IMG/VR virus record: IMGVR_UViG_3300018426_001942
Coordinates: 1-64,000 of that record
Strand: one strand, 5' to 3'
DNA: 64,000 nt
Origin: a virus
Below, piece by piece: positions 3,423 through 49,394 of the stretch. Both the position numbers and the translations under genes were made by a program. Position 1 is the stretch's first letter, and every line of letters begins with the position of its first letter. The notes under the pieces were generated by a model, which was given only the letters and a program-made list of their open reading frames with translations, ran no database searches and was not told the DNA's origin.

Positions 3423-6400
3423 ATGGCAAGACAAGAAGTAGACATCGGCATTGAAGGTAATGACGGAACCGGTGATAGTATTAGAGAATCGTTTCGTAAG
3501 GTAAACGAAAACTTTCAAGAGATATATGCTGTAGTAGGTAAAGGTGGACAAATAACCTTTACATTGCTTGCTGACACACCAGACAGTTTAAATCCATTTA
3601 AAGGTGACGGCGTTGATGCTTACTTGCCAATAGTATCACAAGACGGCACAGAAATTGAAATTAGAAAACTAGGCTCTGACAGCGACGAGAATCCCGCCAA
3701 TGTAGACACTATTGATGTAAGTGTTGCTACTAACGGCAAAATTATTCTAAAATTAAATAGTATAACATTACAATCAGATGCTAAACCAGTATTAGGTGGT
3801 CCATTAAATGCCGCCGGCGTTGCTATAGCAAATGTAGGAACTGAACTAGATGACGTAACTGGATTTAACAATACTCATGGTACATCTTTTTCTATCGATG
3901 ATATAGTTATTGACAAGAAGTTTGCTGACAAAAACTACATCCGTAGACAAGATCCAGGAGAAACAATTAACGTACCAGCAGAGCCTGCTGACGGATCAAG
4001 TTATACAAAAGTCTTTACAGTAAGTTTATCATCTGCGGTTGGTGTTGGGACAGCACTTATACCACAACACGGATTGACAAGAGGTTCTGATGGTGCAGCA
4101 TACATTTTTAATACTTCAGGTACAGGATTAAATTGGAGTAGAATTGATCCAGCAACTGACACCCTAGTTTCTAGCACAGACTTGGACGACAACAATCAAC
4201 TAATTTATGGTCCTTTAGAAAATGGCGATGTAGTATATCTTGGTATTTTGGACGAAAATAATATTGGATTTTTTGCTAATCCAGAAGATGCACTACTAAA
4301 TGACTCTGTAGAAAGAAATAGAAGAAGATACAAATTAACAACAACTGATTCGGCAGGTTTGAGTATTACAGACGGCGGCTTCAACGAAGACCTAGAAGGA
4401 TTTTTCTTAAGCCATCAGGTAATGCCACGTGATAGCATTGTAAGAAGACAAGGCGATACTATGGAGGGTCCGCTTACACTCCATGACCATCCAGGTGATT
4501 TAGCAGGAGCAGGAACTCCAAATGGTATTGCAGACTTACAGGCTGTATCAAAGTTATATGTAGATAGCCAATCAACAGAATCAAGTGCAAATATATTTGT
4601 TAGTGTTGTAGGTAATGATGCACAAAATGTTGCTCCTCCAGGTAAGGAAGGTAGTTCACTAGCATATGCGTATAGAACAATAGGCGCAGCAGCACGTAAG
4701 GCAGAGCAGATACAAATTGCTTCACCATTTGAACCTGGTCCTTATATGCAGGACATATTTACATCACGAGTAATAAACGAAGGCGATCCCGCTGTTGTAG
4801 AACTTTCACAAGTTACACAACGAGGCTATGCAACAGGTGCAGGTCTTGATAGTAGAGGTAACACTAAGTCACTTGTTGATGCTAACAAAAACTTTATTAT
4901 TGCTGAAGTTATAGCATGGAAAAATGAACAAATAGAAAATAAAGCTACAACTACTGTTGGAACAACTACAGTCAACTGGACAGATAGAGTTGTAAATGAT
5001 AGAGCTCTTGAACTTGATTTGAGCATAGCATTGGATGCAGCACTGTTAGATCACGTAGCAGGTACACTTGCATCAGCACTATCTACAAGGGTTGGTGTAG
5101 AGTTTTATAATGACGAATATGGTAGGTCACAAAATGGTCTACTAAAAACTGTTTATGCACATTTATTAGAGCAAGCAAGGACTATTACAGCAAGTATTAT
5201 TACAAATACACCTGTAACTCCTTCGCAAACAATTTACACACAAGAATTGATTACATTTGGTTCTAACCAGCCAGACAGCGATGACGCAGCTTCAGTAACT
5301 GGCATATCAGGTAATATGGCAATACAAAGAGATATTGTTTTGAATGGTGTGTTCTCTGCAGAGACTCCGCAGACCGGTAACAGATACGAACTATTTTTTA
5401 GTAACAGTGTTAACGGAATAAGCCAAGGTAAAGTTGACCAAGGCGATCCACAAAACAGAGATCTACGAGTAGGTAAAGTTATTAGAGGTAAGACATCTGG
5501 GGCTATTGGTAAAATTATTAGATATTTTACAGGCGATGATAACATTAACAATCCAGGATCTACTGACGATTTAGCAGAACTAGAATTGCTTACACCAGTA
5601 GAATTCACAATAGGTGAAAAACTGGAAATGGGCAACATTGTTAACAATAGACAAATCACTATTAGAATAGAAACAGGACAGTATTTTGAAGACTATCCAA
5701 TTAGAGTTCCTGCAAACGTATCACTAGTTGGTGATGAATTTAGACGAGTTATTATTCGTCCAAAAGATGAAGTTTCTCAATCACCATGGTCTGGAACATA
5801 TTTTTATAGAGATAAAGAATTTGACGGCTTAACAGGTGACAGTGATAGTGTCACAGGTGTAGCAGATCCTAACTTACCAGTAGACGGTGAAGCATATATT
5901 AATCCGCTTACAGGAGAAACAGATGGATATTTTGGTAGACATTATCTATACAACCCCAATTTACCAAAAAACGTAGACAATGGCGGCAACCTTGCTATTA
6001 CAAATCCAGGACAGTATGTAGATGCAGCTGTTTTAATTGAAAAGAACAAAGAATTTGTAATTGCAGAAGTTATTGCATTCCTTGATTTTTCAAAAGATCA
6101 AAGTAACCAAGGACAACCAGGATATACAGGATATGCAGGTGTTGTATGGGACGATCAGGCTAGAGACAGATATAGAAGAACAATAGGAAGTTTATGTGAC
6201 GCTATTGCTGCTGATTTAAGAGCAGGTGGTAGCATTAATACATTACATATCCAAGGTAGTATTTTCTTCGATGGGTTAAATTATACAAATGAGGCAACCC
6301 CAAGATACCAAAGTATTATATCAGCGGCTGATGTTATACAAAATGTAATTATAAACAATGCTTACAATAACATACTTTATGCAGCTTTTAAAGGTTCAGA

Positions 6401-41655: not shown

Positions 41656-42525
41656 ATGGACTTTGAATTCACTAGAGATCACCTTGCAAAAATAATCCCA
41701 GGAAATAAAGATGTGGATAAGTGGTATGATGCTTTGATAGCAATTATGCCTAAATATGAAATTAATACTAAGCGAAGAGTAGCACACTTTTTAAGTCAAT
41801 GTGCTCATGAAAGTGGAAACTTCAAAAGTTTACAAGAAAATCTAAATTATAGTGAAAAAGCATTAAATGCTGTATTTGGTCGCTACTTTGGTGCGCCGCC
41901 AAAGCGTAATGCTGCTGAATATGCAAGAAACCCAGAGAAAATTGCAAACTATGTATACATGGACGAGTTCCGTAAATACAAGATGGGCAATGTTAAAGAA
42001 GGCGACGGTTGGTTGTTCCGTGGTCGTGGTTTAAAACAGTTAACTGGACGTGAGAATTATACACGGTTTGGAGCATCAGTTAATATGTCTGCCGAAGAAG
42101 CAGCTGTGTATGTTGCTACAGAAAAAGGTGCTGTTGAATCAGCATGCTGGTTCTGGGATACAAACAACTTAAACAGCATTGCTGATACTGATGACGTTGT
42201 TAAAATGACTAAGAAAATTAACGGTGGTAACATTGGGTTAGCCGATCGTCAAAAACGTTATGTATCTGCAATGGAAATTTTAGGCAACCCTGTAAGTATT
42301 GCAGATGATAATGGAGACGATGACTTTGATATTGATGATATCGGAGTGCTCCGCAAAGGTTGCAGAGGTGAAGGTGTAAAAATGATGCAAGAAGCACTAG
42401 GTATTAGTGCTGATGGTATTTTTGGACCTGGCACAGAACGTGTATTAAAAGAGTGGCAAGCAAGCAAAGGCCTAGTAGCTGACGGCATTGCTGGTCCTGC
42501 TACACTCGGAGAACTATTAGGATAA
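41656..42525 (+). CDS. Endolysin, glycoside hydrolase 19 plus C-terminal peptidoglycan-binding domain
   Basis: FLSQCAHES, ENLNYS, FRGRGLKQLTG..NY, SACWFW, INGG; DGIFGPGT..DGIAGPAT. Confidence 0.9.
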   Translation: MDFEFTRDHLAKIIPGNKDVDKWYDALIAIMPKYEINTKRRVAHFLSQCAHESGNFKSLQENLNYSEKALNAVFGRYFGAPPKRNAAEYARNPEKIANYVYMDEFRKYKMGNVKEGDGWLFRGRGLKQLTGRENYTRFGASVNMSAEEAAVYVATEKGAVESACWFWDTNNLNSIADTDDVVKMTKKINGGNIGLADRQKRYVSAMEILGNPVSIADDNGDDDFDIDDIGVLRKGCRGEGVKMMQEALGISADGIFGPGTERVLKEWQASKGLVADGIAGPATLGELLG

Positions 42526-42529
42526 AATT

Positions 42530-42760
42530 ATGTATGTAGATGTTATTATGCAAGTACTGAAAGATCATTTCGGTGCTGAAAAAGAGTTCACTCCCGCAAG
42601 TCATTTTTTAGATGATCTAGACGGAGATGAGATAGATATAGTTGATGTTGTAGTGCAAGTTACTAAAAAACTTGATATTGAAATTCCAGAAGAGGAAACA
42701 TTTGATATTGGTACTGTACAAGATCTAATTGAAGTAGTAGGCAAACACGTTAATGTTTAG
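42530..42760 (+). CDS. Acyl carrier protein-like protein lacking the phosphopantetheine Ser
   Basis: Acidic 76 aa; FLDDLDGDEIDIVDVV...DIEIPEEE...IGTVQD versus ACP DLGADSLDTVE...IEIPDEE..ITTV. Confidence 0.8.
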   Translation: MYVDVIMQVLKDHFGAEKEFTPASHFLDDLDGDEIDIVDVVVQVTKKLDIEIPEEETFDIGTVQDLIEVVGKHVNV

Positions 42761-43238
42761 TAGTCTAAGAATTGCAATATTTTTAATTATCCTTGCTAGT
42801 GCAGGCGGTGGCTTCTGGTATGTCAAGAAGTTACAAAGCGACCTTGACACAGCAAAGATGAATATTGTAAAACTTGAGGATGGAATACAGGAACAACAAG
42901 CACTAATAGAACAACAACAAAGAGACTTTGAAGCCATTACTCAGGTACGTAATGACTTAGAAGATGTAAATAGAATGTTACAGACAAATATCAATAATTT
43001 AAATGAAAAATTTAACCAGTTGAATGCGTCTGGAGTAGAAAGAGATATAGGCGCTTTATCAGTTGAAAGACCATTAAGTATAGAGCGTATATTAAATAAA
43101 GATGAAGTTAATGAAAGACGTTGCTTTGAAATAATAGGTGGCGCCGAATTAACCGAAGAGGAGTTAAATGCTACAAAGAAGTCACAGATCAACACTGTTT
43201 GTCCTGAGCTTGCTAATCCTAACTACGTCCCTTATTAG
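42753..43238 (+). CDS. Inner-membrane spanin-like protein
   Basis: N-terminal TM helix, long coiled coil, distal Cys; near endolysin. Confidence 0.65.
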   Translation: MFSSLRIAIFLIILASAGGGFWYVKKLQSDLDTAKMNIVKLEDGIQEQQALIEQQQRDFEAITQVRNDLEDVNRMLQTNINNLNEKFNQLNASGVERDIGALSVERPLSIERILNKDEVNERRCFEIIGGAELTEEELNATKKSQINTVCPELANPNYVPY

Positions 43239-43557
43239 TGGATGTAGTACTATCAAGCCAGTTGAAGTATTAAAAACAGAAGTTGCAAGACAGCCGTTAA
43301 ATTTACCTCTACCCGAACCTGCACAACTGGAAGAAGTTCGCTGGATTATAATTAACAGAGAAAATGCAGAGCAGGTTTTTGCAGATCTAGAAGCAAAAGG
43401 TATTGACCCTGTGCTAATAGGTTTGACCGATGAAAACTATGAAAACTTTAGAATGAATTATGCACAAATACGTGCATACATGCTAAAGCAAAATAGAATT
43501 ATAGATGCTTACAAAGAATATTACGAAAGTGAGCAAGAAGAAACACAACCTGAATAG
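43168..43557 (+). CDS. Outer-membrane spanin-like lipoprotein
   Basis: Signal peptide with LISG-C lipobox, Pro-rich segment, overlaps i-spanin 3' end. Confidence 0.65.
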   Translation: MLQRSHRSTLFVLSLLILTTSLISGCSTIKPVEVLKTEVARQPLNLPLPEPAQLEEVRWIIINRENAEQVFADLEAKGIDPVLIGLTDENYENFRMNYAQIRAYMLKQNRIIDAYKEYYESEQEETQPE

Positions 43558-43613: not shown

Positions 43614-44090
43614 ATGGCATATTCACAAAAAGTAATCGACCGATTTGAGCAGGTTACAAATAACCCAGGCGCTCATGGGGTAGGTCGGTTTGACCCTAAC
43701 GATCCAAACGTTGCTATAGGCATGACAGGTGCTCCTGCATGTGGTGATGTTATGAAACTAGATCTAAAACTTAATCCAGAAACTGAAGTTATAGAAGATG
43801 TAAAATTTAAAACTTATGGTTGCGGAAGTGCAATAGCATCTAGTAGTATGTTTGTCGAAATGCTTATCGGCAAAACAATCGAAGAAGCAAAGCAGATAAA
43901 AGATAAAGAAATTGCTGAAGCATTAGAATTGCCGCCTATCAAAATACACTGTTCTGTACTAGCAGAAGATAGTATTCAACGTGCTATTAAAGATTGGGAA
44001 GAAAAGAAAGCAGGTCGAAAAGGCACTTTTTTAGACAGCATGATTAAAAAAGATGACAGCATGATTGGCCATAACGGAGGACCTAAATAG
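43614..44090 (+). CDS. iscU: Fe-S scaffold IscU
   Basis: MAYS, APACGDVM, FKTYGCGSAIASSS, LPPIKIHCS. Confidence 0.95.
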   Translation: MAYSQKVIDRFEQVTNNPGAHGVGRFDPNDPNVAIGMTGAPACGDVMKLDLKLNPETEVIEDVKFKTYGCGSAIASSSMFVEMLIGKTIEEAKQIKDKEIAEALELPPIKIHCSVLAEDSIQRAIKDWEEKKAGRKGTFLDSMIKKDDSMIGHNGGPK

Positions 44091-45152: not shown

Positions 45153-45515
45153 ATGTGGGAAATGATAGAACGCATGGCGAGTGATCGTCTATGGATTTAT
45201 ACAGCAATAGCTGGTAGTATCTTTGGTGCTTTATTCATTGCATGGATTAGAGATACACGTATTGCGCTTTGGGCATACGGTAAATGGGATTGGTTACTTG
45301 ATAGCATTAGAGACAAGTTTGGTTGGACTTGGTTTAACCAAGATCCGCATGCTTGGCGTAAAGTAAATCCCAATATAGCCCGTAAGATCGACGAACTAGA
45401 AACTAGAATTATTAAACTAGAAAAGCATAGCCATCCATGTAAAGAACTACACGAGTTTGATGTTTGGCCAGAACTAGATGCTAGAATTAAGAAATTAGAG
45501 GGTAAGAAAAAATGA
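45153..45515 (+). CDS. Membrane-anchored hypothetical protein
   Basis: Late motif, GAGG RBS, TM helix plus coiled coil. Confidence 0.65.
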   Translation: MWEMIERMASDRLWIYTAIAGSIFGALFIAWIRDTRIALWAYGKWDWLLDSIRDKFGWTWFNQDPHAWRKVNPNIARKIDELETRIIKLEKHSHPCKELHEFDVWPELDARIKKLEGKKK

Positions 45516-45805
45516 GTGACGAAATTCAAACAAAAAAAGTAAACATAGAACTAGAAGTAGATACAAATACAGTAGACAGTTCAAAAAATAGATTTCAATC
45601 ATGGATTGATCTAGCAAAAGCTGTTGACAGTTGGAGAATTTTTCCACGCATTTTTATAACTACATACATTTACTTGCTGTACAAAGTTGTAATTTGGTAC
45701 ATGGGTATTGAAGATCCTACAATGGAACAGTCAGGACTTGTAAGTATTGTTGTAGGTGCTGGTGCTGCATGGTTTGGTTTATACACCGGAACTAGTAAAA
45801 AGTAA
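45512..45805 (+). CDS. Two-TM membrane protein (possible holin)
   Basis: DSWRIFPR followed by two hydrophobic helices. Confidence 0.55.
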   Translation: MSDEIQTKKVNIELEVDTNTVDSSKNRFQSWIDLAKAVDSWRIFPRIFITTYIYLLYKVVIWYMGIEDPTMEQSGLVSIVVGAGAAWFGLYTGTSKK

Positions 45806-45828: not shown

Positions 45829-46668
45829 ATGGACCACTATTCCGTACTAGGCGTATCTAAAACAGCTACCGATAAAGAAATTAAAACCGCTTTTAGAAAA
45901 TTAGCGGCAAAGCATCATCCTGACAAAGGCGGTGATAGTAAAAAGTTTGTGCAAATTAAAGATGCATATGAAACTTTAATTGATCCGCAAAAGAGAGCTG
46001 AGTACGATAATCCTCAACCCCAATTTGGACAGTATCAGAGAGGATTTGATTTTAACAATGTCAATCCTGACATACAGGACTTGTTTGGTCAAATGTTTAG
46101 AAACGGTACAGACCCGTTTAGACCACCTCCTCGTAGAAACAAGGATATTACTATTGCCGCTAAAGTAACACTTGAAGATGTTCTCAAAGGTAAGAATCTA
46201 ATTGCAAGTTATAAATTAAGAAGCGGCAACACCGAAACAGTTGAGATAAACATACCTCCTGGTATTAGAGATGGTGATACTATAAGATATGGAGGCTTAG
46301 GAGATGATTTCTTACAATTTGCTAGAGGAGATTTACATGTTAAAATACAAATTCTACCTCACACAGATTGGCAAAGAGATGGTATAAATCTTTATAGAGA
46401 ATATTCTGTAAATGCTCTTGACTTAATTACAGGAACTAGTATAATAGTAGATACACTTGAAGGAAGACAGTTAGATCTTAAAATACCTAAAGGAACGAAG
46501 GTAGGATGTAGATTTAATATAGCACAACATGGCTTACCAGACAGACGTAATGGTGTGCGTGGAAACGCATATATAATAATAAATGCTCATATACCACAAA
46601 TAGATAACCCACAGGTGTTAGAGTATATAAAAAGTATGAAAAAGATAATAAACAATGAAACTGATTAA
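45829..46668 (+). CDS. DnaJ-class (CbpA-like) co-chaperone
   Basis: J domain HPDKGG; C-terminal DnaJ domain without Zn finger. Confidence 0.9.
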   Translation: MDHYSVLGVSKTATDKEIKTAFRKLAAKHHPDKGGDSKKFVQIKDAYETLIDPQKRAEYDNPQPQFGQYQRGFDFNNVNPDIQDLFGQMFRNGTDPFRPPPRRNKDITIAAKVTLEDVLKGKNLIASYKLRSGNTETVEINIPPGIRDGDTIRYGGLGDDFLQFARGDLHVKIQILPHTDWQRDGINLYREYSVNALDLITGTSIIVDTLEGRQLDLKIPKGTKVGCRFNIAQHGLPDRRNGVRGNAYIIINAHIPQIDNPQVLEYIKSMKKIINNETD

Positions 46669-47161
46669 ATCTCCAGATCCGTGGTTAGAAAAGGTTGTAG
46701 ATCCTTTTGATTTCGAAAAGCACGATGCCGAACAAATTTCCAAAGAAATGCTTGAAATTATGGAGCAAGAAGGCGGAATAGGATTGAGTGCAAATCAAGT
46801 TGGGTTCAATGGACAAATTTTTGTTATGAAGCCGCATTTGCTAGAAGATAATAGTCCACTTACAATTATTAACCCAAGCATAGAGCAAGTAACAGTAAAC
46901 GCAGAATCTATGCCAGAAGGGTGTTTAAGTCATCCAAATTTGTTTTTAAAGGTTAGTAGACCTAGAGGTATTGTTGTAAAATATCTTGACACACAGCAAA
47001 AAGAATGTATAATAGAATTATACGATATAGATGCAAGATGTTTTTTACATGAATACGATCACTTACAGGGTATCGAATTTACTAGTCGTGTATCTCGCCT
47101 TAAACTTGATATGGCAAGAAAGAAGCAAATAAAATTAAGGAAAAAATATCCACATGGTTGA
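46655..47161 (+). CDS. def: Peptide deformylase
   Basis: GIGLSANQ, EGCLS, HEYDHLQG. Confidence 0.95.
   Translation: MKLIKSPDPWLEKVVDPFDFEKHDAEQISKEMLEIMEQEGGIGLSANQVGFNGQIFVMKPHLLEDNSPLTIINPSIEQVTVNAESMPEGCLSHPNLFLKVSRPRGIVVKYLDTQQKECIIELYDIDARCFLHEYDHLQGIEFTSRVSRLKLDMARKKQIKLRKKYPHG
46986..47013 (+). promoter_or_regulatory. Internal sigma70-type promoter upstream of clpA
   Basis: TTGACA-16nt-TATAAT inside def. Confidence 0.5.
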
Positions 47162-49394
47162 ACCAAGCAAAGAACTACAATTAGTATTTGAAAAAGCAAT
47201 CGCAGATGCTAGAAAACTTCAACACGAGTATGTTACAGTTGAACATATTCTATTCGCTATGCTTTGCGAAGAAAACTTTGAAAACATAGTTACAGGTTAT
47301 GGTGCTGACCCTGCCTTTATAAAATCTAATTTAGAAAATCATTTAAAAACCGCTTTAGATGATATTAAAGTTGACGGAACAAAGCACAAGCCTAAAAAAA
47401 CACAGGCTGTTGAACGTGTTCTAAACAGAGCGTTTACTCAAGTTCTATTTAGCGGTCGTAATCAAATAGAACTAAGCGATGTATTCATTAGTATACTAAA
47501 TGAAAAGAAATCTATTGCTACATATTGGATAGAAAAAGCAGGCATTTCTAAAGACAGATTTGCAGATTACATTTCGAATGAGCATGAAGACTTTGATGAT
47601 GAAGAATTAAGCGGTGCAGCCGCAAAAGCACTTCGTGCATTTACTTCTAATCTAAACGACGAAGTAAGAAAACAACGTGTAGATCCTATTATCGGACGTT
47701 CAGAAGAACTAGATGCTATTGCTCTTGCACTAGGACGCCGTCAAAAAAATAATGTACTTTTAGTTGGTGATCCAGGTGTTGGTAAAACCGCTATTGCAGA
47801 AGGTTTAGCATTTAAAATTGTAAATGACGATGTACCAGAATTCCTAAAAGAGTATGAAGTATACAATCTAGATATTGGTGCTATGCTCGCTGGCTCTAAA
47901 TATCGTGGAGACTTTGAAGAACGTCTAAAGTTAGTCATCAAAGGACTACAGAAAAAAGGCAAAACTGTAATGTTTATCGACGAAGCTCATATGATGAGCG
48001 GAGCAGGAGCAGGCGGGCAAGACAAATCAAACGATTTGGCTAATATGTTAAAGCCAGCACTTGCAAAAGGTAACTTAAAAGTTGTTGCTTCAACTACTTG
48101 GGAAGAATTCCGTAAGAGCTTTGAAAAAGATCGTGCATTGATGCGCCGTTTCCAACGTGTTACAGTTGACGAGCCAAATGCAGAAGTAGCAAAAGATATT
48201 CTACGTGGTATTAAAAAGTACTATGAGGACTATCACAAAACACAAATCACAGAGCAAGCAATTGAAGCTGCTGTAAAATTAAGTGTAAAGTATCAAACAG
48301 ATAAAAAACTTCCTGATAAGGCTATTGACTTAATTGATGTAGCATGTAGTAGATTTAATTTGAAAGATCCTGAAGTTGAAAAACTAGTAACAGAGGAAGA
48401 AATTCAATTTGAACTTGCTAAGATGATTAACATGCCTGTTGAAAATATTGCAGAGAAAGAAACAAGTAATCTAGCACATCTAGAAACCAACATGAAAAAA
48501 GCGGTGTATGGACAAGACGAAGCAATTGATAAAATTGTTGATAAAATTCTTGTTGCACAAGCAGGTCTTAAACCTGACGATAAGCCAATTGGTAGTTTTA
48601 TCTTTATGGGGCCAACCGGTACAGGTAAAACAGAAACAGCCAAGCAACTAGCAGAACAACTAGGTGTAAAACTAGTCCGTTTTGATATGAGTGAATATCA
48701 AGAGAAGCACAGTGTTGCTAAACTAATTGGGTCGCCTCCAGGTTATGTAGGTTACGAAGAAGATGCTGGCCAGTTAATTACAAAACTACAAGAAAATCCA
48801 AACTGTGTGTTACTGTTAGATGAAATCGAAAAGGCACACCCAGATGTTTCACAAATATTACTACAGTTAATGGATAATGGTAAAGTTACAGGTAGTAACA
48901 GTAAAGAAGCAGATGCACGTAATTGTGTTCTTATCCTTACAACTAACCTAGGTGCAAGTGATGCAGAGAAAAATCTAATTGGATTCAACGACGAGTTTGA
49001 ATTAGAATATGAAGATAAAGCACTTAAGAAATTCTTTGCTCCAGAATTCCGTAACAGACTTGATGCAACTATTATATTCAAGAAACTTTCTAAAGAAATT
49101 ATGTTGAAGATAGTTGGTAAGTTCTTAGTTGAACTTAAAGACATGGTAAAAGATAAAGGAGTCAAGATCGAAGTTGATTCTGAAGCATTAGACTATCTTG
49201 TAGATAAAGGTTTCGATCCTAAAATGGGTGCAAGACCGTTAGCAAGAGTAATTGATAATGAAATCAAACGTCCACTATCAAAAGAATTACTCTTTGGTAA
49301 TTTAAAATCTGGCGGTAGTGTAACAATTAAATTCAACGAAGATGATGAAAGCCTATACTTGGAAAGTTTAGGGGAATCACTTGTTGAACTTTGA
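47154..49394 (+). CDS. clpA: ClpA-like AAA+ unfoldase
   Basis: Clp N domain, GDPGVGKT, GPTGTGKT, DMSEYQE, IGF loop (NLIGF), no M domain. Confidence 0.9.
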   Translation: MVEPSKELQLVFEKAIADARKLQHEYVTVEHILFAMLCEENFENIVTGYGADPAFIKSNLENHLKTALDDIKVDGTKHKPKKTQAVERVLNRAFTQVLFSGRNQIELSDVFISILNEKKSIATYWIEKAGISKDRFADYISNEHEDFDDEELSGAAAKALRAFTSNLNDEVRKQRVDPIIGRSEELDAIALALGRRQKNNVLLVGDPGVGKTAIAEGLAFKIVNDDVPEFLKEYEVYNLDIGAMLAGSKYRGDFEERLKLVIKGLQKKGKTVMFIDEAHMMSGAGAGGQDKSNDLANMLKPALAKGNLKVVASTTWEEFRKSFEKDRALMRRFQRVTVDEPNAEVAKDILRGIKKYYEDYHKTQITEQAIEAAVKLSVKYQTDKKLPDKAIDLIDVACSRFNLKDPEVEKLVTEEEIQFELAKMINMPVENIAEKETSNLAHLETNMKKAVYGQDEAIDKIVDKILVAQAGLKPDDKPIGSFIFMGPTGTGKTETAKQLAEQLGVKLVRFDMSEYQEKHSVAKLIGSPPGYVGYEEDAGQLITKLQENPNCVLLLDEIEKAHPDVSQILLQLMDNGKVTGSNSKEADARNCVLILTTNLGASDAEKNLIGFNDEFELEYEDKALKKFFAPEFRNRLDATIIFKKLSKEIMLKIVGKFLVELKDMVKDKGVKIEVDSEALDYLVDKGFDPKMGARPLARVIDNEIKRPLSKELLFGNLKSGGSVTIKFNEDDESLYLESLGESLVEL

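Follow-up and report, generated by a model that had tools for sequence, protein, structure and literature searches.

The window analysed here, a stretch of 64,000 nt, belongs to a 152-kb record that represents part of an uncultured jumbo phage genome (CheckV completeness, 43%). The structural genes of this phage are ~25% identical to those of the 121Q-/RaK2-like enterobacterial jumbo phages, and two virion structural genes, recognized through PHROGs, are located just upstream of the lysis genes. The latter begin with an endolysin gene (41656–42525, + strand; stop codon TAA at 42523–42525), the product of which combines a GH19-like catalytic part with a PG_binding_1 domain (phrog_181, E = 9.6e-73; PF01471, E = 5.3e-11). 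A small gene on the same strand (42530–42760) follows, encoding a 76-aa protein with a net charge of −14; a Shine-Dalgarno-like AGGA (42519–42522, + strand) is positioned 7 nt 5' of its ATG, within the last endolysin codons. The stop of this gene is overlapped by 8 nt by the start of an i-spanin gene (42753–43238, + strand; phrog_739, E = 4.1e-10), coding for an Rz-like protein with an N-terminal transmembrane domain (TMD). The end of the i-spanin gene is in turn overlapped by an o-spanin gene (43168–43557, + strand; phrog_812, E = 4.3e-12), the product of which displays a signal peptide and the lipobox LISGC.

The 76-aa protein is a true homologue of acyl carrier proteins (ACPs). It matched the Pfam PP-binding family (PF00550) over residues 5–69 with a score of 31.2 bits against a cut-off of 20.8 (E = 2.7e-7), as well as phrog_5934, annotated 'acyl carrier protein' (E = 1.3e-8). 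In HMMER comparisons with solved ACPs in the PDB the best match reached E = 7e-10, the top hits being housekeeping ACPs. The AlphaFold2 model, computed from an alignment of 47 sequences, has a pLDDT of 89.3 and contains four helices (residues 2–14, 34–48, 54–57 and 63–74). The top Foldseek matches to this model were all ACPs, with TM scores of 0.78–0.85 (about 0.84) and an rmsd of ~1.7 Å; ESM Atlas returned 'ACP family' and nothing further. The sequence is that of a soluble protein, with neither a TMD nor a signal peptide. The original prediction of an ACP homologue with Glu at the Ser position, folded as the ACP four-helix bundle, is thus borne out by Pfam, PHROGs, the PDB alignments and the AlphaFold2/Foldseek comparison. 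An EF-hand or DxDxDG calcium site at D29–D36 was also considered and rejected: the Gly position of the motif is not satisfied, and position 31 is D, N or G.

Direct reading of the sequence confirmed that the codon at the phosphopantetheine-Ser position is GAG (42629–42631, + strand), specifying Glu34, the first residue of helix II (34–48). HMMER aligned Glu34 with the Ser of the D-S-L motif in solved ACPs (query 'ddldgdeidivdvv' against 'kdldaDSLDsvelv'). The conserved Ser of this motif, which accepts 4'-phosphopantetheine, is replaced here by Glu34 and in 24 unique marine relatives by E (13 sequences) or D (11 sequences). These relatives span five subtypes, down to about 30% identity, the fifth subtype being located upstream of related spanins. 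E or D likewise occupies the site in all 14 database relatives (61–99% identity) and in 25 IMG/VR loci; Ser was found in none of the close homologues. All four acidic codons (GAG, GAA, GAT and GAC) are in use among the relatives, and the two members of near-identical pairs may differ in having E or D. The reading frame is unbroken in every locus, and dN/dS calculated pairwise for close pairs is 0.05–0.14. The retention of an acidic residue among the relatives excludes decay or a sequencing error. Judged from these alignments, the acidic replacement at residue 34 is under selection, and purifying selection on the protein is strong. Since the attachment Ser has given way to a selected acidic residue throughout the clade, the carrier function has been lost, and the original claim that phosphopantetheine is not attached at the canonical site holds: the product of 42530–42760 is not a functional carrier.

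Across the five subtypes (24 sequences), the best-kept segment is L30-x-x-D33-[ED]34-x-D36-[IVM]-[VI]-[DE]39, together with I52-P-E-E55. T62-V63 and a family-specific His13 are also conserved, and helix II varies in its second half. No other conserved Ser or Cys was found near the site in these 24 sequences. Because the conserved segment surrounds residue 34, the conserved surface is the face around the former attachment site, which in AcpP is the face that meets partner enzymes. The acidic side chain itself may mimic a phospho(diester), a reading indistinguishable from N-capping of helix II or charge stabilisation.

An exhaustive search of 1.84 billion representatives of 50%-identity clusters was performed. 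Most of the nearest matches carry E or D at the site (P0015, at 53% identity, followed by P0017, P0018, P0020, P0036 and others) and have HFG and DDL[DG]GD[ED] in common. A few Ser-bearing tandem-domain proteins are also ranked near the top, and from ~42% identity down the matches include single-domain Ser ACPs. No cellular home of the E/D clade was seen, a scan of GTDB genomes having yielded only ordinary Ser-bearing ACPs of Clostridia, and no viral locus was found for P0018. One metagenomic protein, P0087 (110 aa), has an Asp-site ACP-like domain after an apparent lipoprotein signal (…LIVLIMVSGC…), suggestive of a Ser-less ACP fold that is exported and anchored to lipid. P0022, P0026 and P0121 are metagenomic tandem carrier-domain proteins with Glu or Asp in place of Ser in at least one domain; P0026 and P0121 retain Ser-bearing domains too, and the two aligned domains of P0022 have Asp and Glu, respectively.

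The order endolysin, ACP-like protein, i-spanin, o-spanin is maintained in all 25 close loci. In more divergent relatives it is the junction with the spanins that persists. In one of them (L030) the endolysin position is taken by a GH108-type enzyme and the ACP-like ORF still leads straight into the start of the i-spanin gene, and in another (L029) the same junction is retained with no endolysin at that position. Among 78 loci retrieved via their i-spanin, the ACP-like ORF is present in 39, in every case with E or D at the site and separated from the spanin start by −14 to +5 nt; in the other 39 homologous spanin loci it is absent from anywhere in the locus. As half of the spanin loci do without the gene, the spanins do not need it, and the ACP-like gene is an accessory of the spanin unit rather than a requirement. 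Upstream of the spanin in the ACP-less loci we found the endolysin, a Cys-rich mini-ORF of 40–60 aa, other membrane proteins, or a homologue of the 120-aa protein described below. The mini-ORF (CxNCG...VC) lies between endolysin and i-spanin in many ACP-less relatives (L077, 2883–2999; L085, 2876–3001; L092, 2877–3017) and in L030 sits beside the ACP-like gene (4846–4998); the endolysin/i-spanin junction apparently offers room for small accessory genes. In the original prediction the gene was described as wedged between endolysin and spanins. Its neighbours are indeed as described, but the tie is to the spanin pair, the endolysin being replaced or missing in relatives. This tie, which reaches the cultured RaK2-like phages, is the strongest signal at the locus and was missed in the original prediction.

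Searches of cultured phage records with tblastn, using the ACP-like protein as a query, returned nothing, even at E = 5. However, a profile of the marine family matched a single place in the genome of phage 121Q, gene 510 (E = 2.5e-4). Alignment of the C-terminal domain of gp510 with solved ACPs (E ~1e-3) puts a Trp at the Ser position, and the domain retains an AcpP-like helix II ('EMVMELEEKF'); PF00550 did not detect this copy at E = 0.01. Gene 510 is followed by two genes, one annotated as an Rz-like spanin and the other coding for a lipoprotein (lipobox IISGC). The same triplet of ACP-like, i-spanin and o-spanin genes occurs in 121Q, RaK2, Turkey5, CBB and Erwinia phage Kaldavass. The residue at the Ser site is Trp in 121Q gp510, Thr in RaK2 ORF009 and Asn in Turkey5, whereas Ser is kept in CBB gp163 (annotated 'acyl carrier protein') and Kaldavass CDS0501. 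With such a range of residues at the site, the module apparently has no need of Ser, and across lineages it appears to be Ser-optional. The gene content 5' of the triplet differs: tail-fibre genes precede it in 121Q, a nucleotidyltransferase block in both RaK2 and CBB. BLASTP finds no relation between the i-spanins of 121Q and the marine phage. The cultured versions are 131–139 aa long with an N-terminal helical extension of ~60 aa, whereas the marine proteins (71–76 aa) consist of the ACP domain alone. As hhalign gave no significant match between the marine profile and 121Q gp510, common descent of the marine and cultured spanin-adjacent groups is likely rather than proven. Searches of the 152-kb record, the 200-kb record G001 and four complete cultured relatives for a phosphopantetheinyl transferase (PPTase, PF01648) turned up none; the marine genomes are represented by fragments, however, and the enzyme might be supplied by the host.

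Two further small membrane proteins are encoded after the spanins. A 120-aa protein with one TMD (45153–45515, + strand; no informative family match) is found there in every locus with enough flank, and in L117, L119 and L120 its homologue overlaps the i-spanin start. The adjacent gene (45512–45805, + strand; phrog_10198, function unknown) codes for a 97-aa protein with two C-terminal TMDs, ~80% conserved and present after the spanins in all relatives. The two are likely holin or antiholin candidates, the former a putative holin and the latter a putative second holin or antiholin; this phage group has no annotated holin. The lysis region is directly followed by a protein-quality-control block (45829–49394), with genes for a DnaJ-like protein, a peptide deformylase and a ClpA/B-like ATPase; relatives keep this block (DnaJ and Clp in L029). 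Four salt-marsh metatranscriptome libraries contain contigs that match the stretch with 100% identity and span both the endolysin/ACP-like and the ACP-like/i-spanin junctions. The depth of these contigs is low and carried-over DNA is possible, and they therefore lend weak support to co-transcription of the ACP-like gene with the spanins; parts of the stretch that are free of RNA contigs are uninformative.

Taken together, the best reading, to which we would give a little less than an even chance, is that the protein carries nothing but binds another protein, as an accessory or regulator of the lysis module. The gene encodes a soluble, very acidic four-helix protein derived from an ACP of type II fatty-acid synthase, its carrier role given up through the exchange of Ser for a selected acidic residue. 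Its stop overlaps the start of the i-spanin gene, and it is probably translated, together with the spanins, from one late message. The product would most likely bind a partner via the canonical ACP face, formed by helix III, the N-terminal half of helix II and the end of loop I. With a cytoplasmic N-terminus of only ~6 residues, the mature i-spanin is unlikely to be contacted directly in the cytoplasm. Candidate partners are the 120-aa one-TMD and the 97-aa two-TMD proteins. The protein might thereby act as a dispensable cytoplasmic accessory that tunes, for example, holin or spanin action, and so lysis timing, by a logic like that of phiKZ gp143 or T4 RIII. T4 RIII and P1 LydB are cytoplasmic lysis regulators. 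The phiKZ protein gp143, small and cytoplasmic, is the fifth gene product of a jumbo-phage lysis cassette and binds the holin (PMC12894885). We prefer a role in the lysis module because the gene stays next to the spanins even where the endolysin, the upstream genes and the spanin sequences themselves have changed, and because jumbo-phage lysis cassettes are known to hold a small cytoplasmic holin-binding regulator. Against it, half of the related loci lack the gene, the occurrence of other small ORFs at the endolysin–spanin junction means that the latter may be merely a permissive insertion site, the adjacency could be synteny inherited within one large phage lineage, and the ACP reported in Eneladusvirus virions hints at a different role.

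The main rival, which we regard as doubtful, is that the protein is a decoy resembling apo-ACP. It would bind host proteins that read ACP helix II (PlsB, AcpS, Fab/Lpx enzymes) and, being unloadable, would block the synthesis of membrane lipids or lipid A late in infection, weakening the envelope before the spanins act. Such a role would suit a protein that is closest in both sequence and fold to the housekeeping ACPs of type II fatty-acid synthesis and of which D33, D36 and D/E39 (AcpP D35, D38 and E41), along with the IPEE of helix III, are the best-kept surface residues. The 121Q version, with its AcpP-like helix II, points the same way. Apo-ACP has, moreover, been reported to inhibit glycerol-3-phosphate acyltransferase more strongly than holo-ACP and to stop growth (review PMC3896788). 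According to the same review, SpoT does not bind apo-ACP. The likeness weakens in the C-terminal half of helix II, where the acidic EEE of AcpP is replaced by T-K-K and varies among relatives, and at position 42 (AcpP M44), which is Val in some sequences and Asp in others. In CBB and Kaldavass, the versions encoded next to the spanins keep the Ser and would be loadable, hence no decoys, and the persistent joining of the gene to the spanin start across lineages is left unexplained by a decoy.

Packaging of the protein into the virion, or its ejection to act early in the next infection, seems unlikely. An ACP, considered here through its published description, was among the proteins detected by LC-MS/MS in purified virions of Eneladusvirus jumbo phages (PMC7760394), and the window has the two virion structural genes mentioned above shortly before the locus. 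A CBB gene in the o-spanin position (gp165; L140, 2687–3001) is annotated 'structural protein'; this product and the Eneladusvirus ACP are either membrane contaminants or signs of a particle-associated module. Yet virion preparations are commonly contaminated by small abundant acidic proteins and membrane debris, and the ACP-like protein has no propeptide or packaging signal to point to. Participation in Fe-S assembly as a partner of phage IscU or host IscS, in the manner of mitochondrial ACP–ISD11–NFS1, was suggested by a NifU_N/IscU gene that starts at 43614, 854 bp downstream of the ACP-like gene, and iscU is near in the closest relatives as well; ACP is also present in NFS1–ISD11 structures (5usr in the Foldseek list). 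The distance of ~850 bp given in the original prediction is thus accurate, but the functional link is not upheld: iscU is missing from the flanks of L007, L014–L025, L029 and L030 and from the whole of G001, which has the ACP-like gene, and in G005 it is ~23 kb away. The known roles of ACP in Fe-S complexes act through the acyl-pantetheine arm, impossible for a Ser-less protein. With co-occurrence missing, this reading is largely refuted and very improbable. A second, diverged iscU-like copy (~54% identity) was seen ~1.2 kb after the first in L003 (8662–9027) and also in L004, L005 and L006. Equally improbable is that the gene is a decaying relic or encodes a carrier loaded by a non-canonical route, as the loss of Ser in the marine clade and its presence in distant cultured relatives might suggest. 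The low dN/dS, the intact frame in every locus, an acidic residue kept through E-to-D changes and four codons, and the confident structure model (pLDDT 89.3) speak against a relic; the lack of another conserved Ser or Cys near the site, and of a PPTase in the records searched, speaks against a carrier.

ACP is among the best-studied small proteins, and its Ser is regarded as essential for function. Here, a clade of abundant ocean jumbo phages keeps the ACP fold under selection for a non-carrying job, in a gene joined to the spanin genes. If the partner is a lysis protein, this would be a new type of regulator in phage lysis; if it is a host client of ACP, the protein would be a natural inhibitor of envelope-lipid synthesis. 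More broadly, it is possible, if on the doubtful side, that these phages have turned the ACP fold into a lysis component of a new class, Ser-independent and spanin-coupled from marine to enterobacterial jumbo phages, which either times envelope disruption via a phage membrane protein or, as an unloadable ACP, stops host envelope-lipid synthesis shortly before lysis. As the gene order is found also in cultured jumbo phages of E. coli, Klebsiella, Pectobacterium and Erwinia, the question is answerable at the bench. The ACP family itself and the ACP–spanin neighbourhood in RaK2-like phages are known, an ACP gene near a spanin gene having been noted in Eneladusvirus by Kim et al. 2020 (PMC7760394). 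We found no paper on a Ser-to-acid phage ACP in the literature searched, nor did we find there the marine fixed-acid clade, the overlap with the spanin start or a Ser-optional module across lineages.

With bacterial AcpP (PF00550), especially its apo form, the phage protein shares the four-helix bundle (TM ~0.84, rmsd 1.7 Å), the length and a net charge of about −14, as well as D-x-x-D-x-x-[DE] at the start of helix II, I-P-E-E in helix III and T-V at the start of helix IV. It differs in having Glu or Asp for Ser, an invariant family-specific His13, and T/S/C-K/E-K in place of the acidic EEE at the end of helix II, and in that its gene is joined to spanin genes rather than to fab genes. The ACP-like proteins of RaK2-like jumbo phages likewise have an ACP-fold domain, and their genes immediately precede those for an Rz-like i-spanin and a lipoprotein; there, however, the site is occupied by Ser, Trp, Thr or Asn instead of a fixed acidic residue, and in sequence these proteins resemble the marine clade only weakly (profile E = 2.5e-4 in 121Q). 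Regulators of the phiKZ gp143 type resemble the ACP-like protein in being small and soluble, with neither TMD nor signal peptide, in being encoded among lysis genes and in being dispensable for lysis itself. This likeness is one of gene setting, with no relation in sequence or fold expected, and by analogy the ACP-like protein may have a comparable role in the timing of lysis.
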